58,363 nucleotides of DNA from Basidiobolus ranarum (lineage: Eukaryota). The position numbers and the translations under genes were made by a program. Every line of letters starts with the position of its first letter. The first letter of the stretch is position 1. Under the pieces are notes generated by a model. The model was not told the DNA's origin, ran no database searches, and saw only the letters and a program-made list of their open reading frames with translations. Where the stretch lies: positions 1 through 58,363 of the forward strand of contig JASJQH010000009.1 of NCBI GenBank assembly GCA_040143965.1, in the 5' to 3' direction. Positions 10,694-58,363 of this stretch are shown in pieces.

Positions 10694-12072
10694 TTAGGAC
10701 TTTGAAGATGCATTATCCCTAAGTGAGTCACTATGCTCTATCACATGGTCGGAGTTATAGTCAACATGTACAAAAGCACGCTCTACGTGTGGTAGCATTT
10801 CCAATGAATTTTGAAGATGCTCGCCGACATCATGAGATTCTTTCAGAGAGATACCTGGGGGAAGTACAATATGGGTCTCTACATGAATGTTCTCACCTAC
10901 GTAGTATGCTCGAACCTGCATCTAAATGTTAGCATAAATCAGTGGATGCGACGAGAAAAGTGTTTTACTAACAGTTTCAACTTCAATGATCTTGGGGTCG
11001 TAGCGAAGAACCATATACACAAGTTGTTGGATCTCTTGAGCGCTAGCGGTGTGTCCAGTCAAGCGTACGATATTCTCTGATAAAACAATAGGTTAATCAC
11101 TGAATGCACCTACGAATAATGAGATGGCGAAACACACCTAGACAGATCCCAATCCAATTATAGATAAATAGAACGGCAAGGACAATTGCTCCTACTGAGT
11201 CAATCCACCACCAAGAAGTGACCCCGGCTAGAATGGAAAATCTTTAGAAATCGGAAAGTGACGATACAAAAGCTATTTAAAACTTACCTATCAACGGGAA
11301 TACAAAAGCCAAAATGTTGAATACTACATCGTTGCCATGGTCTTGAGCGAGTGTTTGAACAGTCATGTTTTTGATGTTACGGCACCAAATCCACAAGACA
11401 AACTTCACTACGACCACTACTGCGAGAAACATGGCTGTGGTAAGACTCATCGAGATGTTGGAATCCTCTGGTGAGAGTAGGTTCTTGATCGACTCTATAA
11501 TAACTTGAAATAGTGAAGTAGCGGTTACTGCTGCAAACACCACAATGCTAAGCGGCTCCATTCGCGACTAAATAATGGGTTATGTCAGTATTTTCAGAAA
11601 AGCATTTGCTACCAGAGTTGATATAGATTCTACTGACTTTCCCGATAGGATATTTGTAGAAGTTCCTTCTCTGGATAATGATTGAAGTGCAAAAAATTAC
11701 TGTCCCAGCCATGATGTCAAGGAAGGAGTCTAGGGTCGAAACCAAAATAGCCAAACTGCCCGAAGAAAGCGTCATGAATACTTTCATAATGAAAAGGGAA
11801 ATATTTGCCATAAAGCTCACGTTTATGGCCCAGGTAACCCGATTCTGTCGGTTGGTGCTTATCAGTGGAGTAGTTTCGACGTTGCCCTGTGGTAAATCTA
11901 TCAGCCTCGGAAGTCCCCTACTTTCGTTCAATATATCATCGACTTCTCCGAGTTTTTCCAAGAACTCATTCTGTTTTTTATAGAATACGCGCAAGTGTTT
12001 ACTTTTCAGGCTTTTCAAGTCTTCGGGTGAAGTAAACTTGTTGTTGAATCTCTCAAAGAAAGATTCGCTCAT
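10694..12072 (-). CDS. Cation diffusion facilitator, MTP/Mn-CDF-like metal transporter
   Basis: FYKKQNEFL, SGSLAILVSTLDSFLD, YPIGK|SRMEPL, LAQDHGNDV, ESHDVGEHLQ, VERAFVHVDY. Confidence 0.88.
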
Positions 12073-12668
12073 GGTTAGTTCAAATAGTGAAAGCACACGA
12101 TAGCGTTGATAATAGCGCGAGGTTAGGTTTTATTTTTTAACGCAATACAGAAAAAGAAATGCTATCATCAAATCCATTGGTTGTTTATTCTACGAATACA
12201 TACATAGCTAGGTTTCAATTTGATCCTTTAGATATGATAAGTGTGCAAAAATGGACTGATAACGAGAGAATTTTCATGACATTTGGTGATATCAGACCAT
12301 CAACTAACACTTGATTTTCCTTTTGAATAGCATCATTATGAATACATCAAAGCCCTCGCTCTTTGGATCTTGACTGGTTTTGAAATGAAAAGCGGTCACC
12401 TTGCCGGTACTCCACGCAACGGAATTTCCATACTCGTTTGGTTTAGGGGGATGTTGTGGTCACGGCGTACTAATATCTAAGTTCTGTCTCACCCTCACGT
12501 GCATTGGTGAATCAATGACCAGAAATTAAATGAAAAACTCCAATATCAGGTGACTAGAATCTATGGAAGACTTTTAGGGCTTAGGAGAATTGTATTTCTG
12601 TTCACCTAGCCCAAGTATAACCATCCTTCCACTTTAGGCTATTCACTCGAACTACACCAAACCCAGAT

Positions 12669-14553
12669 ATGAGTGAGAAAGATATTGGCGAACTTGAAGA
12701 TATATCAGCTGGATATTTAGGTAGCCAAGAGGCCACTTATCCACAAAAAGAAGTTTCCCAAATTTCAACCAATTCTCTCCCCAATAGCGTGCAAGTAGAG
12801 ACCGTCCAATTCGAAACAAACAATGTCCCTCTCTCTACCTCTCTCAACCAAGTTACATTAACTAATGAGTCCATAATAATGCCATCGACGATTAAGGGGC
12901 AAGAGGGGGTAGAATACCATCCTATTTACTCACCAGGCCTGGAGGAAAATCCTATGATCGAAAACCATTCAGTGAGAGTTGAAACTCAGGAAGAAATGCA
13001 AAAAAATCAACCTCCTATCGAAATGACTTCTACAAATGAAGAAAACGGTGTAACTTTTGACTTGAGTCAAGAGAGCAAACATTCAGCCGATAGAGTAGAA
13101 GATTCACAACAGCATTTTGGTACAGTGAATCATTCACTTGAGAAAGAAGTAAGTTTTTTTACTAAAAAAACGTATCTTGCTATTAGAAAACGAGTCGAAT
13201 TCTTTGAACACTCTCAATGAAGTGGATTTATCAGTTACAGACAGCTCTGCTGTAAATAGCCCTGAAGTTAAAAAAGTGAGAAATAGATGGACTCCAGAGG
13301 AAACTAACGCGCTAATTAATGGTTGCTTTGAGGTAAGTCTAAAATTATTAATTCAAGTCGAGGGTTGGTGTATTCATGTAAACTTTCCTTTATTTTGTCT
13401 TGAATAGCATGGAGTAGGTGCATGGAAAAAGATACTAGATGACTCAAAATATTCATTTGTGAACCGAACTTCCGTCGATCTAAAGGACAGGTTGGTTTTC
13501 CAAGAATTTTTAAAAAAACGCGTATCTTCAATTCTAATGACATTATTGTAATTAAGATTCCGAACATTGTTTCCAGAAGAGTATCATAGGTTGTATCATA
13601 CATCCATGCAAAAGCTTCGCGAGATTAAGAAGCAACCTGTAGAGTCTTACCCTACACCATTCCGTCGAGTAGACAGAAGACCGAAAAGAAAATTCAACCA
13701 AGAAGATGACGAGAATTTGAAAGCAGGATTCCAAAAGGTAAGGGGTCTAATTGTATTTGAAACGTTACATCTTTGAATCTTTTCTAAGCTTCATGCTAGT
13801 ATGGGTGTGCCTGGGCTAGAATCGTAAAAGATCCCACTTTAAATCTCCAGGATAGGAGAAGCACTGATCTTCGAGATAGGTTAGTGATACTAAAGGGGTC
13901 AATAAATGAGGCTGAATATTTATATGCTAAATTCTATTTAGGTTTAGGACTGCTTTCCCTGAAATATACGAGCAACTCGGGTATGCTCCTAAATATCCCA
14001 CCAAGCTTCTTCGCAGCCAGCCTAACGATGAAGCATCCGGTGTGTAGACATTGCCATCATAGAGCACTTATTTCTAACATTAACATGTCCACTCTTTTCA
14101 GATAGTTCACAGGTAACAGACCCAGCAAACACACCAAATTCTTACGTCGAAACTTCGGTCTTCCATGGCTTGGAAACTCATCCGTTACCGTCAATGCCGC
14201 GTACACCTGACCAGAATAGGGTGTTAGGTGTTTCTAATGAAGGCCCTTTAACCCCTCCTCCTACCAAGAGAAGAAAAAAGAAGAATATCCCTATTCGCCC
14301 TGAGCATGAAGAAACAGTGGAGTCGGTGTATGGGAAGGTGATTGATGCTCAACTCAAGGAAGGGGTACGTATACAGTGAATGGTTCGATATATGATAATG
14401 AGTATCTCATCCATGATTTGCCATCAGATCGAGTCAGATGTTTGGAGTTCGAATAATTCAGATCAATATGTCGGGACGTTTAGTCGGGTTGTATCATCCA
14501 CACCAACGTCGAATGATCAAGATCAATACCGTAAGATTCTTCCCAAACAGTGA
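12669..14553 (+). CDS. Double Myb/telobox-domain protein, Tay1/Teb1-like telomeric-repeat-binding factor
   Basis: Myb1 RNRWTPEETNALINGCFEHGVGAWKKILDD...RTSVDLKDRFRT; Myb2 RKFNQEDDENLKAGFQKYGCAWARIVKDP...RRSTDLRDRFRTAFPE (LKDR/LRDR telobox signature). Confidence 0.8.
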
Positions 14554-19164: not shown

Positions 19165-19918
19165 ATGTCCATCGTAATTACTCCCAAGTATAGCTGGGTA
19201 AGTTGCTTCTTTTATTTCGAAATAACCAGTGTACTAATCCCAGGAAACGGTAGTGCGTTATCACTGCTGTCGGTATGAGCTTTCAACTTCTGTTGACTGG
19301 TGGTGCCGTCGGTGCTGCTAGAAAGAAGTACACTATTCCCGTAAGTTTTCTTCACGGCTAACGCTTTGGTTTCGGATACCTTTTGCTCACCTCATGCTTG
19401 TACAGTATCCTGATATGGGAAATGGTCGTTTTGCCGCTAAGCTTACGTATGTATAGCCCCATATACCACGCAGGTTACACATGACTAATTTTTGGAACAT
19501 ACTAGGGATGAGGAGTGGACTGAATTCAACAATATTCAGCGTACTCACCAAAATTACGTAAGCCTTTTCAATGGGAATATTTCCTCTCGTTGAATCTAGA
19601 CTAATGGTTTGTCTAGGTTGAGCAAATCTCCACTGCTCAAAGTTTAGTACTACTTGGTGGTCTTTACTTCCCAGAAATTAGTGCTACCCTTGGTGCCATT
19701 TATATTGTGAATATCCAGTTTTTATATATTTCTGTGGGAACATTTATACTTACCAACCTTTATCGTTTCAGTTCGGACGTGTCCTCTATACTGAAGGCTA
19801 CAAGAGAGTTGGCTCCAAAGGGCGTATCTATGGTGTTATCCCTATTGATCTCAGTCTTTTAGGTTTGGTAGGAGTCACCCTTTTCGGAGCCGCCAAGACA
19901 TTGAAGCTTATCAAGTAA
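19165..19918 (+). CDS. MAPEG family, microsomal glutathione S-transferase 3-like (5 introns)
   Basis: VGAARKKYTIPYPDMGNGRFAAKLTDEEWTEFNNIQRTHQNYVEQ...GRVLYTEGY; TATAAA near 19105. Confidence 0.9.
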
Positions 19919-20131
19919 CTGTCCGCAGTGAGATTTTTTATGCATTCCACCCCGAAATAAACGATTCTTTAAAACTAAACCTAATGAAGATAATCTTCAC
20001 TATCTCGGCCATAATAGGTGGGGTTTCCTATAATAAAATATCATTTGCTGACAAATTGGTGAAAATCTATAAATCCATCATGTACCATGGTTTTCAACCT
20101 TGTCTTCGCTAAGAGCTACTTTTCATAGAAT

Positions 20132-20572
20132 ATGTCCATCGTTATTTCCCCCGAGTTTGCTTGGCCAGTCCTTGCCGCCGCCTTCATGGGCATTCAATTG
20201 GTCGTTATTGGTGCTGGTGTAGGTGCGGCCAGAAAGAAGTACAAGGTTGATTATCCTGATATGGGATGCGGTCGTTATGCTGATAAACTCAGTGATGAAG
20301 ACTGGGTAGCCTTCAATAATGTTCAAAGATCACATCAAAATTATGTGGAGCAAATTTCTTCTGCTCAAGTGTTTGTACTTCTTTCCGGACTTTTCTACCC
20401 CAAGGTTAGTGGATTCTTGGGCTTTACTTACATCGTCGGACGTCAACTGTACTCTGCTGGTTATCGTTCCAAGGGACCAGAAGGACGTATGATCGGTGCC
20501 ATTGCTTTAGATGTTGCACTTGTGGTCATGTTCCTTATTATTGTCTACAACGCTGTGAAACTTCTGTTGTAA
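20132..20572 (+). CDS. MAPEG family, MGST3-like, intronless paralog
   Basis: Single ORF: VGAARKKYKVDYPDMGCGRYADKLSDEDWVAFNNVQRSHQNYVEQ...GRQLYSAGY; TATAAA near 20069. Confidence 0.92.
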   Translation: MSIVISPEFAWPVLAAAFMGIQLVVIGAGVGAARKKYKVDYPDMGCGRYADKLSDEDWVAFNNVQRSHQNYVEQISSAQVFVLLSGLFYPKVSGFLGFTYIVGRQLYSAGYRSKGPEGRMIGAIALDVALVVMFLIIVYNAVKLLL

Positions 20573-24302: not shown

Positions 24303-25334
24303 ATGGACGTAGAGGAGGAAATAGACCCATTTGAGGCGCGTTTAGCATTTCTTTCGCTGCTAAAAAAACTCACAGCCTCACAACAGTCAATACACAAAGC
24401 CACTAATTTCGCTATTAAATTCAAGTCTCTTTATGAAGATCTATATAGTTGTATCATCGAAGAATTGGATCAGGTATAGAGCATTTACCTTTAAATTCAA
24501 ATTACTCAAGGAACATTTCGTTTAAAAATTAAGAGTTCCTGAAGAATTGCATGTAAATAATATTTCCCCGTTGAACCTTTTCTAAAACTCCTCGATTGTG
24601 TACACTTTTCACTTCAGGCTAGTTTCAGCTCTCGTTTAAATCTCTTATACATACTCGATTCGATATGTCATCAAACCACTCGTATGAAGTTTACCGGATA
24701 TGTGGAGTTGGTACGCAAAGATTTGAACACCATTGTTAATAAAGTGGTTCCTGACAACGCGAAAGGAAACGTGAATTTACCAAGTGCTCGTAAGGTACAC
24801 TCCATTTTTTTATCTATGGAATTCTTTCGATTTATCTCGTGTTTAACCTCTTTCGAAAACAAATATTTAGGTATTGTCTGGTTGGAAAATGAAAGGTATA
24901 GCTCCTGCTGCTGCTATAGAAAAGATTGAGCAGTCTTTAAGTTCACGAGATATTGGGTAAGTTTAAAAGGATACATGTGTTTACTCGTTTAATTATGGTA
25001 TCATTTCAACTCCTTTTCTCTTGTTAGAGATGCGGATTCTGGTTTATCCAAGACGGATATTTTAAAGCGGATGGAAGAGGACCGTGAAAGAGTTAGTAAA
25101 GTCCATCTACTTGCAACTTTGAGAACTCGATATTAACGATATTGATGCATTAAATAGCACAAGAAGATGCGTGAAGAGAATTGGGTCTGCTATTATGACC
25201 AAGAAGACAACGGTAAATCCAAAGAATTTTCCAATACTTGGGAAACCACGTCAGATTTGAATGAACAAGACCTGGAGATGATGGAGTCCGATTATGCTAG
25301 GTTCCGCTCAGACACGGGCCATTCACCAGCCTGA
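24303..25334 (+). CDS. CTK3: CTD kinase I gamma subunit
   Basis: DPFEARLAFLSLLKKLTASQQSIHKATNFA...EDLYSCIIEEL...RLNLLYILDS...ILKRMEEDRER|HKKMRE. Confidence 0.87.
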
Positions 25335-30653: not shown

Positions 30654-31535
30654 TTAAAGCATTTTCTTCTGTTCGTCAACTGAAAGACCACCAGGGCCCA
30701 TACTAACCAACAACATTAATCCACCCATAACACTCAAAGTTTGGAAAAAGTCATACTTGACGAAATCTCTACTAGGATGAGCATGATGAATAGACCACCA
30801 GTTATTGATAAGTACGTTGAAAATCGAAAGGAATAGCACAAGGAACATGGCAGACAACTTGGCCTTAAAGCCCACAACAACCATAGTACAGGCGATAAAC
30901 CCAACGATAGACGAGATAACCCTTAATAGAGTCAACTCCCCGGCGAAGACAAATGACAAGAATAGGAAAATCAAAAGAATACGTCCGGCAAGTTGGAAGT
31001 AAGTAGATTTGTCAATCTCCGATACACTAGGAAGTCCAGCAAAAGATGTTTGGCGCTTGTGAAAGGCATCTGCAAGGAGCATCAAAAGACCACCAATTAA
31101 AGAAAGATTACGAAGGAAGAATTTGAAGTCGAAAAGAAGATCATATCCCAGGGTTTGGGATATAACTACAGCGAACAACCCAATAACTGCATATTGTGTG
31201 TGTTTCTTCGTGATTGCCATTATGGAGCCTATAATCATAGTCTTAAATATATATCAAGTGTTAGTCTAAAAAAGAATAAATAGTGAGGCGTTCAGCAGCA
31301 TGCATACCAAGATATTGAAGGCTAAGAAGAAATGGCTAAATCCCCAGTAGAAACCACGGTATTTTTCGAGGTAACGAAGCTGATCAGACCACTGGAAGGT
31401 GATACGAATGGAATCTTCAATAAATGTTACCACCAACAAGAAACGAGCGATGGCAGGAATGTAGGGTTTGGCGGGAGCAGCAATCGTGACAATCATGTCC
31501 TCTAACTGGGAGGTAATACGCTTGACCTGTTCCAT
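30654..31535 (-). CDS. ERV29: ER-Golgi cargo receptor SURF4/Erv29
   Basis: KPYIPAIARFLLVVTFIEDSIRI...RDFVKYDFFQTLSVMGGL...GPGGLSVDEQKKML (KKXX). Confidence 0.93.
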
Positions 31536-32213
31536 GTTGATCTATTGTCTAGAAGTTACTTACTAGTATGAATCAATATTCTTGTCTCAACAAAACTATT
31601 TAAAGTATATTGTAACAAGGTAAAGTTTAGACGTCGAAGTTCGAGTATCTGTCAAATAGCTTGAGATAATTCCAAAGGATATTTATAACCGGGATTCCTT
31701 GAAATCAACCGTATTTGACAAGTTGATGTATAGGTAGAAAGAAAATCAGTCACCAAATCGCATTACAATAGTGACACACTTTCGCTTGTTATTGGATCAA
31801 ATTTGTAGTTTTGACCTTGACACTAATTAAGAGCTGAGAGCGAGAACAAACATTACTCAGATCCTGACAAGCTATAGTTGAGATCCACTAGACCAATTAA
31901 ATTTCTTGATTCCATCTATATGGCATTTACTCACTAAAGTCATAACATTCGAATGTGGGCTACTAAAGCAATGCAGAGAAGAGTCTAGAATTTGGTTATT
32001 CTACGGGATACTAAAGAGGGTTAAGATTAAACAACATTATATCCCAAAGCTGTGCAGATATGGTTTATTTACAATCCAAATGATTTTTAATCTGTTTATT
32101 GTCTCTAATTTGAAAAAAAATCCATCTTGTAGGTAACACTTGACTAAGCTATTTCTTTCAGGAGTGTTATTCTTCGACAACACCTCCCAATTGGGCACAC
32201 ACACGAAGTTAAC

Positions 32214-34126
32214 ATGATGTTTTATGATGCAAGTTTTGGCGATGGGAGAAAAGCTCCCGTTACTCATGAGAGAATGACCGAATTTCAAGCAATTGTACTG
32301 GCTGGTCATGGTAACAGGTTAGATTTCAAACGAAGCGAAATATATTCTGATCGAGTACCTTGTGAAAATCTATGACTCGAATTTTGCTCGGTCAAATTTT
32401 AACCATTCAACGATATAGAATGTCTCCACTTACCAACGAAGAGAATTTACCAAAAGCGCTGCTGCCAGTTGCTAATAAGCCCCTACTTTGGTACCCTTTG
32501 AATTGGCTTGAGAAAGCCGGAATCAAAGGTATGAGATGCTTATTTACACCTTTATGCTTGGCCTCTAATGAATAAGTATTTTGCATCATACAAAACTAGA
32601 TATCATTGTCATTGCACCTTCCTCTGCTGGCGCAAAGATCTCTCATTATCTTACAAGCGTTTACAAAAAAACCTCTCACGTTGAACTGGTTGCTTTGGAA
32701 GGGTATGTCGGTACTGTTGAAGCATTGAGACAAGTCAAGGATAAAATTAGGGTACTTTTCAACTCATTCATATATACTGCCCAGAGAATGCATCAACTAA
32801 ATACGCCTCCTTTAGCACGATTTTATTGTAATGAGTTGTGATCTTGTATTTGACCTGGTCCCTCATGATTTCCTTAATTTCCATCGTGCCAATGACTCTA
32901 CTATGACCTCTTTGTTCTACGAACCTATCAAATCCGAGGGAGGTGGCTCTGGTAGAGATGACGATGGTACTGTTGGTGTATTTCCTCTTATGCTCTAAAC
33001 TACATTCGACTGACTTTCCTCTTGAAGACATGAACCAATATGTTGGTGTAGATCCCAAAGATTCTAGACTAATTTACTCCAAGGCGGCCATTGATGTTAG
33101 TGACGAGTTGGTCTTCAGGATGTCACTTCTCTGGAAGTTAGTATTTACTCTAATCCTTAGATTCAACGACAACTGACTTATTATTTTTAAGACATCCTTG
33201 TATCAACGTATACACAACACTTCGTGATGCTCATCTATACATCTTCAAACGCTGGGTGATGGATTTGATCATGAAGAAGGACAAATTCCTCAGTATTCGT
33301 GAAGATTTAGTGCCCTATCTCACTAAGATTCAATATCAAACTGGACTAATCGAAAAGGACGAAATTGAAAAGCGTAAGAGTATTGTATTTTTTGAGATAC
33401 TTTCATTTACTGATGGCAAGTCTAGTTATCACTCCTTCTAGTAATCAACAAGATCCTTTCGAGTACTCCAGCTCCAGACGAGTTCTTGAACAAGATCTAG
33501 TCAAGTGCCAGGTCTATTTCCATCGTGGTGGTCTCTGCGGTAGAGTCAACACAGTAGGAACATACTTCGATATGAACAGACATGTGAGTGCTTTAGATTG
33601 TTTTCTGTTTGTTTAGATCACTGACTTATGCCTCTTTAGATGGCCAAAACCACCACAGATATTCGAGTTCCTTCTTCCGCTGACATCAATCCCAAAACAC
33701 AGATTGGCGCAGACTCGATTGTTGGAGAAGGATCCCGTATGGGAGAGAAATGCTCGGTCAAAAAATCCATTATTGGTGCTCATTGCATCATAGGAAAGAA
33801 TGTTAAAATCAGCAACACCATCTTGATGGACTACGTCCAAGTTGAAGACGGGTAATGATCTAGAAGTAATTCATTTTCCAACCCTATACTTACCCTCTCT
33901 TTAGAGTTAAACTGGATGGTTGTGTCGTCTGTAATGGTGCCAAGATCCATGAAAAAGCCCAACTCAAAGATTGTGAGGTGGGAGCGAATGTTGTCGTAGA
34001 GAAAGACAGTAAGTTCAATGCAGAAACATTTATTCCATAATTCCATCATATTCAAAGAATTTCATTACTTTAATAGCTCAAGCCAAGAGTGAAAGATTCA
34101 TGGATTATCCAGAGACTAACGAATAA
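32214..34126 (+). CDS. GCD1: Translation initiation factor eIF2B gamma subunit
   Basis: [52 protein letters not shown], and a C-terminal hexapeptide (LbH) region. Confidence 0.88.
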
Positions 34127-35424: not shown

Positions 35425-38400
35425 CTAACGAGTGCGTCTCTTGGGTCTAGCAATCTTACGACCAGCAGGAACGGTACTACTACCCATATTAAATCCGCCT
35501 GGAGCTGCTGGTTGTGCTGCACTTGCAGGGGTACCATTAAATCCGAAACTTGGTTGTGCGGCAGGTGTACTAGCACCAAAAGCAAATGGTGCCGGTTGAC
35601 TTGGGGTACCATTGAAATTGAAACCATTTCCAGGTGCAGATCCGGCTTGGCCATTTCCTGATCCAAAGGCAAAAGTGCTAGGTTGAGAAGCTGCTGGTTG
35701 AGAGGCACCAAAGGAGAAGTTGGAATTACTATTGGCTCCGAATGCTGTGGTTTGAGGTTGAGGCTGGGCTGATGAGGCACCAAACCCAGTAGTACTTGTA
35801 CTGCCAAATGCAAACGAGCTGGTGTTGGCTCCAGAATTGCTACCGCCAAATGACATAGAAGGTGGTTGTGACGTACTAGCTCCGAAGCTAAACCCTGTAG
35901 CAGTGGATGGACCACTACTATTACTACTACCAAAAGCAAATGGAGCAGGGGGGTTTGGAGTGGTAGCGGCAGGTGTACTGCTATTAGCTCCAAAACCTCC
36001 AAATCCAGTTGGTGGTGTAGATGACATAGCATCATTTGAGTTAGAGGTTCCAAAAGTGAAAGGAGCTGGTGTAGCTTGGGATGGAGTAGTAGTACTGAAA
36101 GTAGTAGCTTGTGTTGCAGGTGCTCCGAAAGTAAATCCGCTAGGTTGTGCCTGTGTGTTGGCGGAACCAAAAGCGAAGGGCGCAGGTTTGGAATCAACAG
36201 TAGTGGATGGTTGGGAAGCTCCGAATCCGCCAAAAGCAGGTGTAGATGTACCAGCAGTCGAGGTTCCAAAAGTAAATGAAGATTTACTGTCTGTAGTACC
36301 AAATCCGCCAAAAGCGGGCTTGTCTTCGTTAGCTTTGGGAGTTTCCGAAACAGTAGAACTGGGGGCTCCAAAGCTGAATGATGACGGTTTAGCTGTTTGG
36401 GTGGTGGGAGTACCAAATGTAAATCCAGGTTGGCTACTACTGGATGAGGCTGCTGGTGTACCAAACGTAAAGGTAGATTTACTATCGACAGGAGTGTTGG
36501 TGCTTGCAACTAAAGTAGATTCTTCACTTTGGCTAGCAGGTGCACCAAAGCTAAAGCTGGTAGTTTTAGCATCCGAAGTATTGGTAGAGTTAAATGAAAA
36601 TCCACTAGGTTTGGGTTCAGTACTATTGGAGGACGCCGCTGAATCACCGAAAGTAAATCCTGCAATTTTGGATCCTTCCTCACCTGTAGCAGCCTTAACG
36701 CCACCAAAACTGAAACCAGACTTAGGCTCACTTGTATTAGTAGGAGTACTGTCATTTGTACCAAAGCTAAATGTAGGCACATCAGATACTGGCTTGTTAG
36801 TGAGCGAAGTACTGGCGCCACCAAAGGTGAACCCACTGGCTTTAGGCTCAGGAGGACCACTTGGAGTGGTACTAGGAGCGCCAAATGTGAATCCTGTGGA
36901 TTTGGGCTGAGTTTCCTCTGGTTTGTTGGCAGTGGAATCATCAGTAGAGCTGGCAGGAACTTGAGAACCAAATCCTAAAGGTTTGTCATTGGCTACGGGA
37001 GTACCAAAGGTGAATGTAGGATTACTTGGAGTTGCAGACTCAGAAGCAACAGGCTTGCTTGGTACTGAAACGCTGGGAGCTCCAAATGAAAACGATGGTG
37101 TTTTTGTCTCGTGTTCATTCTTATCTTTGGTAGCATTAGTATCAAGCTGGTTGTTAGTCAGCTTGGGTTCAGTTTTATCTGAAGTACCAAAAGCGAAGGT
37201 GGGTGTTTTGATTTCTTCAATAGCAGGAGAACTAAATGAGAACCCAGGTTTGCTTGATGTCACAGTTTCTGATGAGGTTCCTCCCAAAGAGCCAAAAGAA
37301 GGCTTAGTTGAACCAGAAACATCCTTATTACTTAACTCAGAGGTTGAGGACTTGTCCTCACTTACAATTGGAGACGATCCGAATGAGAAACCGGCGGGTT
37401 TTTCCGATTTTTTAGGGCTGCTAAAGCTAAACCCAGAGTTGGTTACCTCAGACTTCTCAGTGGTAGATACATCTGTTGAAGAAATGGAATTCCCAAAAGA
37501 GAAGCCAGCTAGCTTTGTTTGTGTAGGGATATTGCTAGGAGTTTCTGGAGAAGTCAAGACAGAAGCGGATTTATCGGTGGTTAGACTCTCGGTTGTTACA
37601 CTGGGGCTAAGTGATCCAAAAGAAAATCCGGATAGTGTACTGCTTTTCACTTCTGTATTACCCAAAGATGGTGCTGATGAAATAGCTGAGGTGAATGCTT
37701 CAGTGTTACCCAATATGCTACTTCCTTTATCGGACTCACTCTGGGGGGTTTTGTTTGCTGATGTAGAAATATCGGAAGTTGCAGAGCCGAGGAAATTAGT
37801 GGTTGTAACACTGGGAGTTTTCGGAGTAGCAAAACCAAAACCACCTGAAGTATTCAACAAGGGTGCAGGAGCAATTGTCTTTAATGTCTCATCTTCCTCA
37901 CCGCTGTCTAGATCTTCATCTCTAGCAGAGAAGCGATTACTTGATCCATGTTGTCTCGTCGAGAAGGTCTTCATTTTGAGAGAATATTTTTTGAGTGTAT
38001 GTGAGGACTCGTCCACCGGTTTCTCGACCTCAGTTCGCTTAAACTCAACAGGCAATGATGGAGCTTTAATATCACTAAGAGCTACAGGAGATCCAAAACT
38101 GAAATCAGTTTTAGAAGGGGAATGATCTTCAACAGTAGTGGCATTATTAGCGGAAAGTTCATCAGTGGAATTAGAATCTGTAGTATTAGAAACATCTGAT
38201 TCTATACTCTTTTTGGCCTCTAACTGCTGAGAAATTTTCTTCTTTTTCTCATTAACAGAAGAAAGAAATTCAGAGACCTCTGACAGACGAGATGGGGCTT
38301 TACTGACAGCTCTGCGGCTTTTAGAATAAGGGAGACCAGGAAGGCTGAGAGGTACAGAGAGCGCCTTGGTCGGAGGAGCAATATCATCCTCTAATAAGAT

Positions 38401-39324
38401 GCTTCTCTTGGTTGAACTCTGACGAAGTGAGGATGAGGTAGTGGTGGATCTTTTAGCTTCAGAGAAGGGGGATGAGATGGACTCAATATTTTCCATTATT
38501 CTTCGAGCTTCAGATGGAGTAAAAGGGAATTGAGGTGTTCCGAAACGATCGCTCATCTCATTTGCGCTTGGCTCAACCGTCTTTCTTCTTTTAGTTTGTT
38601 GCTCGGACCCTGGAGAGCCAGGAGAAAGATTTCGAGAAAATGGACGTCTACCAACACTATTAAGACCCGCAACAGAGCTTCTATTTGGTGTACGAGTGGG
38701 AACTTGTACTCTTTGTTTAGCGAATCGAAATGGGCTTTTGCTAGTATAGAGATCATCAGAAACCATTGCCTGTTTCTTGGCCAAAGACTCCCTACCAACG
38801 CGACGAACGTACTCAATGATTTCAGCATCCCCTTGAGTTGAAGGTGGCTGAGAAGCTTCGACCATGGATACGTTAGAGTCACGAAGAGGGGTAAGTTTAG
38901 TTGAATCAAACGAAGGAACTCTTGGGTATAAGGACTCTCCGGAATTTTTGGTAGATACTTTTTTCCCTTTGTCCGAATCAATAACCAAATCTTTTCTACT
39001 GCGAATAGTATCACGGTTGACATCAATAGGATCATCGTGATGTTCCTGATTATCATTATCAACAGCATCCATGTTGCTTGATTGCTCCGAATCTGAATCT
39101 ACATTCTCTTCGTTCTCAGCGACGGGAGAAATGTGACTTTTCGTAGGTGAGTTTCGTAACCATTTTAAGCTCAGTATACTCTTGACAGAGTTAAGAAAAC
39201 CACCCTCTTCCTCAGGAGCGTTACGCTCAAGGTTTTTCTTAGTACGAGCATATGGCATATTTTGACGAAGTTTTTTTGAACGAAGTGGATGACGACTAGG
39301 TCCAGCTTCTGAATCTAAAATCAC
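35425..39324 (-). CDS. Nuclear basket FG nucleoporin, Nup1/Nup124/Nup153-like (large exon; small 5' exon(s) probably upstream)
   Basis: About 1300-aa ORF with many FxFG repeats and a C-terminal importin-binding tail GRKIARPKRRTR. Confidence 0.85.
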   Translation of the reverse strand: MILDSEAGPSRHPLRSKKLRQNMPYARTKKNLERNAPEEEGGFLNSVKSILSLKWLRNSPTKSHISPVAENEENVDSDSEQSSNMDAVDNDNQEHHDDPIDVNRDTIRSRKDLVIDSDKGKKVSTKNSGESLYPRVPSFDSTKLTPLRDSNVSMVEASQPPSTQGDAEIIEYVRRVGRESLAKKQAMVSDDLYTSKSPFRFAKQRVQVPTRTPNRSSVAGLNSVGRRPFSRNLSPGSPGSEQQTKRRKTVEPSANEMSDRFGTPQFPFTPSEARRIMENIESISSPFSEAKRSTTTSSSLRQSSTKRSILLEDDIAPPTKALSVPLSLPGLPYSKSRRAVSKAPSRLSEVSEFLSSVNEKKKKISQQLEAKKSIESDVSNTTDSNSTDELSANNATTVEDHSPSKTDFSFGSPVALSDIKAPSLPVEFKRTEVEKPVDESSHTLKKYSLKMKTFSTRQHGSSNRFSARDEDLDSGEEDETLKTIAPAPLLNTSGGFGFATPKTPSVTTTNFLGSATSDISTSANKTPQSESDKGSSILGNTEAFTSAISSAPSLGNTEVKSSTLSGFSFGSLSPSVTTESLTTDKSASVLTSPETPSNIPTQTKLAGFSFGNSISSTDVSTTEKSEVTNSGFSFSSPKKSEKPAGFSFGSSPIVSEDKSSTSELSNKDVSGSTKPSFGSLGGTSSETVTSSKPGFSFSSPAIEEIKTPTFAFGTSDKTEPKLTNNQLDTNATKDKNEHETKTPSFSFGAPSVSVPSKPVASESATPSNPTFTFGTPVANDKPLGFGSQVPASSTDDSTANKPEETQPKSTGFTFGAPSTTPSGPPEPKASGFTFGGASTSLTNKPVSDVPTFSFGTNDSTPTNTSEPKSGFSFGGVKAATGEEGSKIAGFTFGDSAASSNSTEPKPSGFSFNSTNTSDAKTTSFSFGAPASQSEESTLVASTNTPVDSKSTFTFGTPAASSSSSQPGFTFGTPTTQTAKPSSFSFGAPSSTVSETPKANEDKPAFGGFGTTDSKSSFTFGTSTAGTSTPAFGGFGASQPSTTVDSKPAPFAFGSANTQAQPSGFTFGAPATQATTFSTTTPSQATPAPFTFGTSNSNDAMSSTPPTGFGGFGANSSTPAATTPNPPAPFAFGSSNSSGPSTATGFSFGASTSQPPSMSFGGSNSGANTSSFAFGSTSTTGFGASSAQPQPQTTAFGANSNSNFSFGASQPAASQPSTFAFGSGNGQAGSAPGNGFNFNGTPSQPAPFAFGASTPAAQPSFGFNGTPASAAQPAAPGGFNMGSSTVPAGRKIARPKRRTR

Positions 39325-40301
39325 TTGGCCAGAAACCTCTGTGTGAAATCAACAAACAAGGGGAATAAGTATCCTGTGCGAGAACTGCTGGAAATACATA
39401 TTGCGAAGAGAATTAAACAAACCTTCATTGTCATCAGCAAACCCCTTACTTGTGTTCTTAAGTGTTGAAGGCATAAAAATAATAAACTATTTGAAAGAAA
39501 CGATAGAAATCCGCGTAAAAACACCGAAATATATGAGGATCTATGATATCTAAAACTCTCCGGGGATACCTGTATTAAAAATAAAGAAAGACAATGAGGT
39601 TATCGAAGAATAAGTAAAGCCGGAATAAGGCCTATTCAAAAGTGATGTCGCCTCTTGGTTGCCCTATATCTATTTTGGTTTCACCAAATATACAGAGCCT
39701 AATGTAAAGTAATCACATAATTTAGTACTTACCAAACTTTTTTTTTCATTAGATCTCCAAAAAAATTGAGTATTCAAGTACCCATTGGTTGTAAAACTCG
39801 AGTTGAGCGTATTTCTGTGTAATTAAATTAGTTTCAACTGTTTTTAATCAACGTAAAAAGGATAGGGTTAGGGTTCGATACGCGTTCTATCTACAATCGA
39901 TTTAACCACAATCTGGCCCACAATATGGCTTGACTTAGCAGCACATTACTTACTGATCTGACATTTATATATATAAGCAGAATTCAATCGTAGACAGGCT
40001 GGTTGAATGTATTTTATTACTTCCACACGCTCTCAAGAGGCAGTGTGGATGGTATATGCTATATATAAAAATAGTGTAGTGCTCAAGCTCGAAAATGGTG
40101 TCTGTAGAGTAAACCAGGTTTGTAGAAATGATACCCAAGAAATCGCAACAACATATGTATCATTATAGAGGCTTTCAAGAAAACACAGTCGAGTTTCAAA
40201 AATTGTCGCATTTACGACACACCAGGGGGTTCTTGAAAAGTGGGGGGATGGCCTGCCAATGAATAGAGAACAAAATTACACTGAATTAAATAAAGAGGGG
40301 G

Positions 40302-50800: not shown

Positions 50801-52809
50801 GACCATCGTTGTGCATCTACAAGCGAATGATCAACAAAATTTACGGTAAAGAGCAAGGTGCCGCTGTCATTGATGCTGTTCATAACAATCCTGCTATCGC
50901 TGTTCCTGTGGTCCTGAGGAGATTGAAGCAAAAAGATGAGGAATGGCGACGTGCCAGAAGAGAGTGGAACCGAATCTGGCGTGAGGTCGACATCAAAAAC
51001 TTTTACAAAGCATTGGATTATCAAAATGTTAGCTTCAAGTCAAATGATAGAAAGCTGATTACCCCTAAATACCTCACTACTGAAATCGAAACCGTTAGAA
51101 GAGAGCAGAGAGACCGTTATCCACCCGATGTTCGACCAAGCTATCAATTCGAATATCAATTTGAAGATCCTGAAGTATTCCGCGATATTACCAGAATCTT
51201 GTTCTCCTCTTTAGGAAAGCAAAGCGGCTTCTCTAACTCGGATAAAGATTGTATTGAAAGTTTTATCAAAGACTTTATCAGAGAGTTCTTCGGCTTGGAA
51301 AGAATTGAACATGACCGTATTGAGGATAACGATGATGCCAGCAGTGTCCATACTGATGATACTGATAATGAATCTCGGATTTCTGAGGACGAAGATTCCA
51401 CTAATTCACATCAAACCAATGATGAACAAAAAGGTAATGAATCGCTAGCAAATGGAGTTGAACATCCTCATCCCGTGGAAAGTATGGATACTGACTCTGA
51501 GGGCGCCCACGCTGATAACGAAGAATCCATAACATCCGCTGCATCCTCACCACGCTCCAAATCTCTCGATGGAAGTGCAGACGGTGGTAAGACCGAGACC
51601 ATGGAGGTCGATTCAGCAACGTGTAGTAAAAGCGAGCCTAGTCAGCCTGCCACTTGGATTCAAATCAAAACACCAAAAATTGAGCCCAGGCGTAAAACAT
51701 CTTTCAATTTCTATGGTAGCAATGTATTTTACGTCTTCTTCCGATTGTACCAGCTGCTCTATTCACGTGTTGAGTCTGTCAAGGTCAAGTCCACCCAGGT
51801 TCCTAGAAAAACCCCTCACACCGAAACCAAGTCGGTAGCTGGAACCTTATCACTTAGACATAGAGTGAGTGTGTTAGGAGATATGGATTATGCGAATGGT
51901 GACTACTATCAAGAATTTCTTGATTTAGTTGATCGTCTTTTTGAAGGGGAGATTGATCAACAAGGCTATGAGGAAGGGATGAGATATCTATTTGGTATTC
52001 ACGCCTATGTAGTGTTTACCATTGATAAGCTTGTCATGGCCATTCTACGTCAAATTCAGACCATTGTACTGGAGCCCAAGTGCAAGGATTTAATCGATCT
52101 ATTCACCAAAGAGAATCATCTAGAAACGACTAGCTTTAGACAACAAATGATGTATCGTTCTAAAGCTGAAAATGTCATTGAGGGAGAAGAAAGCCTGTAT
52201 AGGATTGAGTATGTGCATAGTAAAAACACAGTCATGATTCAATTGCTTAACAGGGAAGACTCGGCTTTAGATTCTGCTGTATCGCTAGAAGAGAAATGGT
52301 CCATGTATATCGACAGCTATGTTTTGCTTACTCCAACTAAGGATGTTCTTCAGCCTGAAAACAGACCATTCTTAGCGAGAAATAGACCAGCAAATCTATC
52401 CGAAGAGCTACCCCAAGATGCAAGCATGAGCAGCGGTTTGGAATTAAAAATATGTGTGAACACATTGAAAACTTATTTCGTTGCCAATACAGAAGATTTC
52501 TTCAAACGTAAAGGCAGGACCGTTTCCGACAGTAGTCTTGAATCTACGAAGCGGAAAAAACATCAAAAATGGAGAACATGGCTAAACGGAGATCTCGGGT
52601 GGTCACGAGGCCAGCCCAGAGAAGAATCGGAGAAAAAATGCGAACAATGGTTTACTGGGAAATCGCTGGACATGAAGGATTTAACCCGGATCAAAGAAAC
52701 AGTCAAGACTGAATCGTTAGAGTACACAGTCTTTGAGACACCGCTGGCTCCTCAACAAAATTCAGTCGAAGCCAATTCTTCGGCTGCTGACGAGCTCAAC
52801 CAATCGTAA
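47839..52809 (+). CDS. SIN3: Transcriptional corepressor Sin3
   Basis: PAH1 [19 protein letters not shown]2 [18 protein letters not shown]3 [22 protein letters not shown]...[17 protein letters not shown]. Confidence 0.95.
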
Positions 52810-55274: not shown

Positions 55275-56915
55275 TTACTCTTCTTCCTCCTCCTCCTCTT
55301 CAGCCTTCTTCGCTGAACGACGGTTGACAGTGCTCTTCTCTCCCTTGACAACATCTTCATCGCTGGATTTCTCCTCAGAGTTAGGTGCGTCAGTTTTCTT
55401 GTGGGGAGCAACTGGGGCTGGGGAAGAAGAGAACAAGCTGAAGATGAGGGCTACGAGAATACTAGCGACACCAGCTATGGCACCAGCAACATAGGGCATT
55501 TCTCTGGCAGCAGCAACTGGGTCAACCTTTGCAGCAGCAATGAATTTATTTACGTGATGGGTGACGAATTTGACGGGCTCCTCGGTGGTAGGTTCGTCGG
55601 CATTAAGATCAGGCTTTGGAGCGTCTTTCTCTTCAGCGGCCTTCTCAATGGCATTCTTAACTGCCCAAGTTTCGGTGGCGATCTTGTGAGCTTCGTCTTC
55701 GGAATGTCCAATGTAGATGTTATCGAAGAGAATATCATTTTGCATGGTCCAGAGTTCGAAACCAATGCCGGAGATTGGCTCAAAGTATGAGGGATGGGTA
55801 TCTTCGAAATAATTAGGATTAGGAATCTTGCGAGGGGCCCACTCTCCCTTGTAAGCGGGGTTATCAATCATCTGAGGATACCATTTACCCTTATAGGCGG
55901 GGTTTCTCTTCATGGGCTTGGTCCAAGGTCCGCAACCAGCGGAGTTCTCACATTTAGGGTTAGGAACTTGAGGGGAAATCCATTCACCATCTTCTTCCTC
56001 ATCCCAATCTTCTGGCTTCTCAGCCTCAGGATCAGGGATGCTTTCTGGCTCATTTTCATACCAGTCTTCAGGTTTCTTGGCGTCTTCATCGACAATCTCC
56101 ATAGGAGCCTCCTCATCCCAATCAGCCGGCTTCTTAGCCTCAGGATCAGCGATCTTTGGGTCGTCAATCCAATCAGAAGGCTTCTTATCTTCAGGATCGT
56201 CAATCTCCTTAGGGGGGTTAACGGCGGGCTCGAAGTTCTCCAAAAGGTTACCCTTATTCTCGGTGTGGTCGTTGATCTTGATTTCGTAGGTATTATCAGG
56301 TCTGACGACAAGAGTGTAGAGAGTGCTCAACTTCGAGACTCTGGAAATAGGAGCACCAGTAAGATGTTTCTCTTCATATTCACCAGAAATAGGGTTCTTG
56401 TGACGGAAGATAAAGTGAACCTTATTAGTAGCACCGCACTTATCAGGTCCAAACATAATAGTGTATGGAGTTTTATCATCGAATTCTTTGTATTTAATAC
56501 CTTGGTCAGATTGAGTGAGTAGCTTTAAGTAAGCACCACCACACTCTAGACCATTTTGTAACTTCACTTCGTATTGAACTACCAAAGCTTTATCTTTGTT
56601 CTCCAAAGCCTTATCGAAAGAAGCGGAGATGGCGTGGTGAGAAGCGGCACTCTTAACCACCAAACCTTCATCACCAGCTAAACCGGGATAAACAGTAGGT
56701 TCCTCAACCTTCCATTGTCCGTTATAACGAAATTCCTCATTCTTGACTGCTTCACTAGGTTGCCAGCGTTTATTCCAACCAGAAGTGAATTGTTCCCAGA
56801 AAGGAGCTTCAATATCAAGTGGTTTGAATTCGGGGCGAGGTAGTTCTTCAGCTAGAACAAGACTTCCAGCCAAAGAGGCGAGAAGAAGAAGAGATAAAGG
56901 GCGTGGACGAGTCAT
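55275..56915 (-). CDS. CNX1: Calnexin (intronless)
   Basis: Signal peptide, [21 protein letters not shown]-domain repeats IxDPxxxKPxDW, [10 protein letters not shown] helix and acidic tail. Confidence 0.95.
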
Positions 56916-57153
56916 GAGTTGTAAGAAGAAGTGGAACAGTGAAGGAAGGAATATGACAAAGTTGAAGCAATTAAAGGCAGTGGCATTGATATAAATTTCA
57001 CTTGCTTGAGGAGATCAATAACAGTCTGGCAGCCGATGACTGGCCAAATTTGAGGTTGTAATGATATTATGCGCTATTACTGAGATCCCAACATTAATTA
57101 CCAATCAGAATTCATTGCCCATCGCTATATCACTTGAGCATAATTCAACGTTT

Positions 57154-57175
57154 TGACGTGGATGCATCGCATTGG
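57154..57175 (-). promoter_or_regulatory. ERSE-I (CCAAT-N9-CCACG) overlapping UPRE (TGACGTGG) in the calnexin promoter
   Basis: Minus strand CCAAT GCGATGCAT CCACG at 57175-57157; plus strand TGACGTGG at 57154-57161; about 240 bp upstream of the ATG. Confidence 0.7.
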
Positions 57176-57649
57176 TTACTCAAACGATAGTAATATCATC
57201 CTCGTTATGCAAATTCCCTTGACTCCATCCATAGCCCCATATTAAATGACTGATGAAACTCAGCCACACTTGAGGGATGATGTTAAGAGCGATATTCAGA
57301 TGGTGGTAGAGGGGAAGGACGGAAGGGACGGAAGGGAATGTTGATCCTCCTGAATAGATGTATGTTGGTGATCATTTGCTGCGATCGTCTGTTATTTGTT
57401 GCACATCAAAGTCTCTGTTCATATTGCACTTTCCCAAGCTATACAAACATTCCCCGTGAATATAGCATTCTGTTTGTGTTTTGTTCTCCATGTATATATC
57501 TACAAAATAGTCTATAAATACTATGGCTAACTGTAATAAAACTCATTGCATAGTACTACAAGCATGGAGATACTCAGTTGAAGAGCAATTTCAAATATAT
57601 TATAATATATTCATTGTATTGTGAAAATCTGAGAATTGTGAAAGATTTT

Positions 57650-58139
57650 GAAATTAGCATTGCCTAAACACCTATATAGTCATATATAGCTTAGTACTTA
57701 GTTATCTTATATTGAACTAAGATATTACCTATTATTCTCATGAGGAACTTACTTCAAAGTTCTCAGATATATAGATTTTGATAACTTGTGCTAGATGTTA
57801 AAGTATTTGGGAGCCTTTTGGAAGTGGCTTGGAGAATTAGAGAAATTGGTGATTTTCACTTGTTGATATATTGTGTATTCAGTTGATATATATAGTTTTG
57901 TCAAGATGTAAACAAACTAACATATAGAATGCATTAAGGAAGGTCCCAGGAACATTTGTGCAAACTTTGGGGCTTCTAGCACAAGTTTGAGAAATCTATA
58001 TATCTGAGAACTTTTAAGTTGGTAAAAATGTTCTAAGTAAATTCCAATTGAGAATAATGGATAATATCTTAGTGAAATATAAGATAACTAAGTACTAAGC
58101 TATATATGACTATATAGGTGCTTAAGCAATGCTATTTTC
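57650..58139. mobile_element. MITE-like / fold-back non-autonomous element with long terminal inverted repeats
   Basis: Left arm about 57650-57795 is the reverse complement of right arm about 57975-58139, including the long perfect block CACCTATATAGTCATATATAGCTTAGTACTTAGTTATCTTATATT; AT-rich, non-coding. Confidence 0.75.
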
Positions 58140-58363
58140 CACATTCCACATGTTAGTTTGCTTACATCTTGTTGGAGGATCTTGACATAATGGGGGTAGA
58201 CTTTGAGTATTAGAAGCAACTTTTGATAGTGTGTTTTAGTTAGTTTATTCTCAAGAGTATATGGTGACTTATATAGTAGAAAAGTAAATCAATTGTTTGA
58301 GATATTCAGGAGTTTGTGTAACAAGATATAATAGATAAGTGGGGGTAATAAGACATACTTGTT

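Follow-up and report, generated by a model that had tools for sequence, protein, structure and literature searches.

A candidate Hac1/XBP1-type UPRE with a CCAAT box at ERSE-I spacing in the calnexin promoter of Basidiobolus ranarum

The fungal UPR is described as an Ire1-Hac1 system, with ATF6 and PERK regarded as metazoan additions (PMC10512342, excerpt). In Ustilago maydis, where Cib1 is the Hac1 orthologue, its ChIP-seq peaks at core genes of the UPR carry T/CGACGTGGAAG or TGACGTGG, a motif that the authors rate as highly similar to the human XBP1 UPRE (PMC6490947, excerpt). Since TGACGTGG is the Cib1 motif, the XBP1-type half is already known as a fungal Hac1 site. Mammalian UPRE-I has the form GA-TGACGT-G[G/A], and the Hac1/Cib1/XBP1-type class includes TGACGTGG. 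On this UPRE mammalian XBP1 does not require NF-Y, and the two elements of Saccharomyces cerevisiae are given as CAGNGTG (UPRE-1) and TACGTG (UPRE-2) (PMC3935401, excerpt).

The second kind of element close to the site described here is the composite ERSE-I, CCAAT-N9-CCACG, which is read in mammals and plants by NF-Y together with ATF6/XBP1 or bZIP28/bZIP60. Known mammalian examples have GC-rich spacers, and NF-Y is conserved in fungi, where its homologue is Hap2/3/5. In plants both ERSE-I and UPRE-I are conserved and bZIP28 binds ERSE-I together with NF-Y (PMC3935401, excerpt), and binding-site data from Arabidopsis show NF-Y/bZIP co-binding that forms the ERSE motif (PMC11472169, excerpt). 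In the open-access literature searched we found no paper on ERSE-I in any fungus and only incidental mentions of the UPR in Basidiobolus; for early-diverging fungi, the excerpt of a paper on anaerobic fungi makes no mention of an ATF6 homologue. The site analysed here had been predicted to be of metazoan type. This label is too narrow, because ERSE-I and its pairing of NF-Y with a bZIP factor also occur in plants (PMC3935401, excerpt), and TGACGTGG is the Cib1 motif of a fungus (PMC6490947, excerpt).

The calnexin promoter of Basidiobolus ranarum

The window, which is the whole stretch of 58,363 nucleotides of B. ranarum DNA that was analysed, holds one classic UPR target gene. Its product is identified as calnexin by a full-length match to Pfam PF00262 (Calreticulin family), a signal-peptide-like N terminus and a hydrophobic segment near the C terminus. 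The top database match is the protein of Basidiobolus meristosporus CBS 931.73, with 86% identity at 99% query coverage, and the other matches reach at most 63% identity. In the NCBI taxonomy the genus belongs to the phylum Basidiobolomycota.

Direct reading of both strands gives CCAAT-GCGATGCAT-CCACGTCA on the sense strand of calnexin (57175 to 57154), which on the plus strand appears in the order TGACGTGG, spacer ATGCATCGC and ATTGG (Table 1). The site holds an exact ERSE-I consensus with a spacer of exactly 9 nt, is oriented towards the gene and, with distances counted from the ATG, falls within the proximal promoter of this UPR target. The original prediction had described a CCAAT-N9-CCACG-TCA with exact 9-nt spacing, placed about 240 bp before the calnexin ATG in an ER chaperone promoter and extended on the opposite strand beyond its CCACG half. 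This description is confirmed in each of its parts, the extension being the 8-mer TGACGTGG.

Table 1. The calnexin gene and sequence features of its promoter, with positions in the window
Feature	Position	Strand	Remarks
Calnexin CDS, one exon, 546 aa + stop	55275..56915	-	ATG 56915, stop 55275-55277; PF00262, E 6.4e-169
AT-rich, TATA-like stretch ATTTATAT (gene sense)	56989..56996	-	about 75-80 nt upstream of ATG; putative
Second CCAAT box CCAATCAG, inverted relative to calnexin	57101..57108	+	186-193 nt upstream of ATG; sequence match only
Composite, CCAAT box 1 to bZIP site	57154..57175	-	239-260 nt upstream of ATG
Exact ERSE-I consensus CCAAT-N9-CCACG	57157..57175	-	
bZIP site CCACGTCA (gene sense), TGACGTGG (plus strand)	57154..57161	-	XBP1/Hac1(Cib1)-type UPRE motif; 239-246 nt upstream of ATG
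Spacer GCGATGCAT (gene sense), 9 nt	57162..57170	-	palindrome ATGCAT inside
CCAAT box 1, context TAACCAATGCG	57171..57175	-	256-260 nt upstream of ATG; candidate NF-Y-homologue site

When set beside the known elements, the bZIP half shares with the Cib1/XBP1-type UPRE the identical 8-mer TGACGTGG, its place in the promoter of an ER folding gene and an ACGTG core that recurs in other fungal calnexin promoters, while its flanks (TGACGTGGATG) differ from those of the extended Cib1 motif (...GGAAG). The ACGTG core is also common to UPRE-2 of S. cerevisiae, from which the site differs in reading GACGTG and not TACGTG. The sole UPRE-1 form in the window, a CAGCGTG at 51508-51514, is far from the calnexin promoter. 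With ERSE-I the site shares the exact consensus, the 9-nt spacing, the orientation and the association with an ER chaperone gene. It differs in that the CCACG half extends here to a complete UPRE, which should bind a bZIP dimer without NF-Y, and in that it occurs just once, in one gene; the spacer GCGATGCAT is not GC-rich.

The remainder of the promoter contains a second CCAAT box, CCAATCAG, which we take to be closer to the NF-Y consensus than CCAAT box 1, and two such boxes inside 75 bp compare with about 0.2 expected. The TATA-like stretch is followed by a CT-rich leader. Further out, about 400 nt upstream of the ATG, lies a short tandem repeat of the GGAAGGGAC type (57304-57335), which is a CT-rich tract in gene sense. 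Just upstream of the promoter there is a long imperfect inverted repeat (57645-58144) with outer arms of 110 nt at 57645-57754 and 58035-58144 (88% complementary) and inner arms of 45 nt at 57751-57795 and 57975-58019 (89% complementary). At about 500 bp in length, it resembles a foldback or MITE-like element.

Frequency of the motif in the window

The statistics of ERSE-I in the window concern a single instance chosen after the fact: from 155 CCAAT and 32 CCACG, counted on both strands, 0.04 matches to CCAAT-N9-CCACG are expected per window and about 3e-4 per 400-bp promoter, and the one match observed on both strands compares with a mean of 0.01 in 100 dinucleotide shuffles, of which one had a match. 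Given a CCACG, the chance of a CCAAT at exactly N9 and in the right orientation is about 1.3e-3 by the same window counts. Statistically, it is a genuine anomaly that the only classic UPR target gene in the window is preceded by an exact ERSE-I.

Taken alone, TGACGTGG is nothing unusual across the window: it has two matches, compared with 0.73 expected, and at least two were present in 15 of the 100 shuffles. If the spacing is relaxed to N7-12, two matches to the composite are found where about 0.26 are expected. The second of these is CCAAT-N10-CCACGTCA at 25231-25253 on the plus strand, which holds the only other TGACGTGG of the window. We rejected it as a second composite: it is part of the final coding exon of a CTK3-like gene (ORF 25158-25334), which translates as FSNTWETTSDL across the near-match, and the gene downstream is convergent. 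Its place in a coding exon indicates that such matches do arise by chance. The assertion that the site is unlikely to be accidental can be upheld in one respect, namely that the exact composite is rare (0.01-0.04 expected per window), but it is weakened by the single, post hoc instance and by the near-match in an exon.

No further classic UPR chaperone gene besides calnexin and no bZIP gene was found among the genes of the window. These comprise an MFS transporter, kinases, RPL7, a cation-efflux protein, an aspartyl protease, MAPEG proteins, the CTK3-like protein, an F-box protein, an INO4-like bHLH protein, SURF4/Erv29, an FG-nucleoporin, a UCH, Sin3 and a UBA-domain protein. In the promoter of SURF4/Erv29 (31535-32400), CCAAT boxes and one CGACGTCT are present, but the ACGTG core is missing. 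The sequence CCAATTGGGCACACACACG at 32187-32205 was discarded, being only a loose CCAAT-N10-CACG that points away from SURF4/Erv29 at about 650 nt upstream. Likewise, GGACGTGTCC at 19775-19784 (ACGTGTCC near the MAPEG genes) was rejected as a promoter site since it is exonic in a tandem MAPEG gene; the region 19560-20569 on the plus strand probably contains two tandem genes of the MAPEG family. A scan of the window for bacterial-type promoters and terminators was set aside, the host being a eukaryote.

Two further observations concern other parts of the window. On the minus strand, 35428-39348 is an open frame of 1307 residues without a Pfam match, whose C-terminal two thirds contain GFSFG/FTFG/FAFG repeats, and these repeats identify the product as an FG-repeat nucleoporin. 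At 12493-12508, CACGTGCATTGG is an E-box abutting an inverted CCAAT box. It is intergenic, between the cation-efflux gene (11280-12129, minus strand) and the ORF 12621-13217 on the plus strand.

Calnexin promoters of other fungi

A metagenome scan with an alignment of 20 calnexin sequences yielded 80 loci with a total of 342,687 bases. We left out 37 of them with less than 450 nt upstream of the estimated ATG, which are short contigs and probably transcripts, and 8 of the remaining 43 as near-duplicates. The resulting 35 non-redundant promoters are mostly from Ascomycota by best named match; Basidiobolus itself is absent, and no animal or plant promoters are included. The ATGs were estimated from the protein match, disregarding introns. 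Enrichment was assessed in the 600 nt upstream of the 35 genes against 500 first-order Markov simulations, and 6-mers were compared with flanking DNA.

The bZIP half of the site belongs to a motif class that is enriched in these promoters. Its ACGTG core occurs at 71 sites in 27 of the 35 loci, compared with 32.9 +/- 6.4 in the simulations, none of which reached 71, and is about 2-3 times enriched. CCACGT is found at 21 sites in 15 loci (7.2 simulated; 0 of 500 simulations reach 21) and ranks third among all 6-mers against flanking DNA. The exact 8-mer TGACGTGG is present in 2 of the 35 promoters, a number reached in 54 of the 500 simulations and not significant. A related form, ACGTGTC(C), has 11 sites where 2.2 are simulated and no simulation reaches 11, and the top 6-mers include GTGTCC and TGTCCT. 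The enrichment of these three suggests a UPRE variant of the ACGTGTCC type in the mostly ascomycete loci.

Five loci (L027, L029, L031, L034 and L035) form one lineage, which comes from soil. The nearest named calnexin of L029 is that of B. meristosporus at 66% identity, and its relatives above 70% identity are all metagenome proteins. The five share a promoter block GCTTACGTGATG...ATTTGnTACGTGGC in which TACGTGG is invariant, so that this lineage keeps the UPRE-2 form from which the Basidiobolus site differs. In the stretches inspected, L027 and L031 also have CCACGTCA, and L029 has CCACGTCT, about 110 nt before the apparent ATG. There is no CCAAT within about 60 nt of the TACGTGG, CCACGTCA or CCACGTCT sites of these five loci. 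A motif class of the UPRE type is thus conserved upstream of orthologous UPR genes through the ACGTG core, CCACGT and TACGTGG.

The CCAAT half gives a different picture. Across the 35 promoters, 40 CCAAT were observed and 40.0 simulated, with 262 of 500 simulations reaching 40, and their density is 1.91 per kb, compared with 2.10 in flanking DNA. CCAAT-N9-CCACG occurs in none of the 35 non-redundant promoters, a set in which Basidiobolus is not represented, and in none of them do a CCAAT and an ACGTG core stand at ERSE spacing. When 800 nt upstream were scanned, three pairs of CCAAT and ACGTG at most 30 nt apart were found in the 35 promoters, none of them ERSE-spaced. In all 342,687 bases there is one exact ERSE-I, in L064, where the gene match starts 2.3 kb upstream of it, compared with about 0.7 expected from motif rates, and ERSE-II (ATTGG-N-CCACG) is absent from all 80 loci. 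The composite is, then, not conserved in the orthologous promoters compared, and the NF-Y/bZIP promoter grammar that had been proposed from the Basidiobolus site finds no counterpart in this set, in which CCAAT stands at background and Basidiobolus is absent.

Competing readings and their meaning

Sequence, position and gene identity of the site are established, as is the conservation of its ACGTG core in other fungal calnexin promoters. Judged by its sequence, the bZIP half is likely to be a UPR element. How, then, should the composite be read? We lean towards a reading in which TGACGTGG is a Hac1-type UPRE that would drive the induction of calnexin under ER stress, with the nearby CCAATs as ordinary boxes for Hap2/3/5. 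In this mechanism, TGACGTGG, as a Hac1/XBP1-type UPRE, would form the core of the upstream activating site of calnexin. Under ER stress, a bZIP dimer of the Ire1-spliced Hac1 orthologue would bind to the ACGTG core and thereby raise calnexin transcription. Both CCAATs, the one at a distance of 9 nt on the upstream side and the better-fitting CCAATCAG about 50 bp downstream, would be ordinary boxes, probably bound by the NF-Y homologue Hap2/3/5, that contribute to basal promoter activity. The exact ERSE-I spacing would then be due to coincidence, or at best be a peculiarity of this locus, and would not speak for an animal-like ATF6 pathway. Such a reading does need a striking coincidence, since an exact ERSE-I, with its chance of about 1.3e-3 given CCACG, precedes precisely the window's one classic UPR target.

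This coincidence speaks for the view that the site is a true ERSE-I, where the NF-Y homologue and a bZIP factor, in the simplest case the Hac1 orthologue, bind cooperatively at the fixed 9-nt spacing as part of an ancestral eukaryotic grammar that this early-diverging lineage retained and Dikarya lost or relaxed. In its favour, the match is exact, where 0.01-0.04 are expected per window and about 3e-4 per promoter, it precedes the canonical UPR target calnexin, and a second, consensus-like CCAAT box (CCAATCAG) is nearby. With ERSE-I common to animals and plants and NF-Y present in fungi, an ancestral composite is not far-fetched. The element is in use in both animals and plants (PMC3935401, excerpt), and NF-Y and bZIP factors bind together in Arabidopsis (PMC11472169, excerpt). 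Against this stands the absence of the composite from all 35 fungal calnexin promoters, including the five of the lineage whose closest named calnexin is the Basidiobolus one, in a set where CCAAT is not enriched either. Moreover, the full TGACGTGG has no need of NF-Y in mammals (PMC3935401, excerpt), the near-identical CCAAT-N10-CCACGTCA arose by chance in a coding exon of the same window, the evidence is one instance picked post hoc, and the open-access literature searched yielded no report of a fungal ERSE-I. We regard a true ERSE-I as unlikely, though it keeps an appreciable probability, given that chance would seldom produce the exact spacing and that animals and plants share the grammar. 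Doubtful, too, is the wider claim that Basidiobolus-type fungi keep an ancestral ERSE-I grammar which predates the split of animals, plants and fungi and was lost in Dikarya, with its first fungal example here.

A further step would be to combine ERSE-I with a membrane-anchored factor like ATF6, CREB3 or bZIP28 that is freed by S1P/S2P and constitutes a second UPR arm. All that speaks for it is that the site is formally identical with the ATF6-dependent ERSE-I. The present data hold no pointer to such a factor, fungi are described as users of Ire1-Hac1 with ATF6 and PERK as metazoan (PMC10512342, excerpt), and a Hac1-type bZIP would fully explain the site, which makes this arm highly improbable. 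Neither an animal-like promoter grammar nor an ATF6 arm is supported by the comparisons run. It is also conceivable that the site has nothing to do with the UPR and is either a CRE/ATF-type site of another bZIP, for which Atf1/Sko1-like proteins are candidate readers, or a functionless chance sequence. That TGACGTGG occurs twice in the window, where 0.73 are expected and 15 of 100 shuffles reach two, and that its other copy sits in a coding exon would agree with this. Yet other fungal calnexin promoters show strong enrichment and conservation of the ACGTG core and of CCACGT, a distance of about 240 nt from the ATG is typical of an upstream activating site, and the site exactly matches the Cib1 motif (PMC6490947, excerpt). 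We consider such a non-UPR origin rather improbable, and the Hac1-type UPRE beside ordinary CCAAT boxes is the reading that we prefer.

On present evidence, the Basidiobolus site adds one more probable fungal Hac1/XBP1-type UPRE, as far as sequence can tell. Among the calnexin promoters of fungi, the XBP1-like TGACGTGG/ACGTG-core element is widespread, which helps annotation and is no surprise. There is a modest chance that this calnexin promoter holds the first fungal ERSE-I. If the CCAAT spacing proved functional, the NF-Y/bZIP logic of ER-stress control in animals and plants would exist in a fungal lineage as well; the composite logic would then date to early eukaryotes, and the promoter would offer a simple reporter system for testing it.
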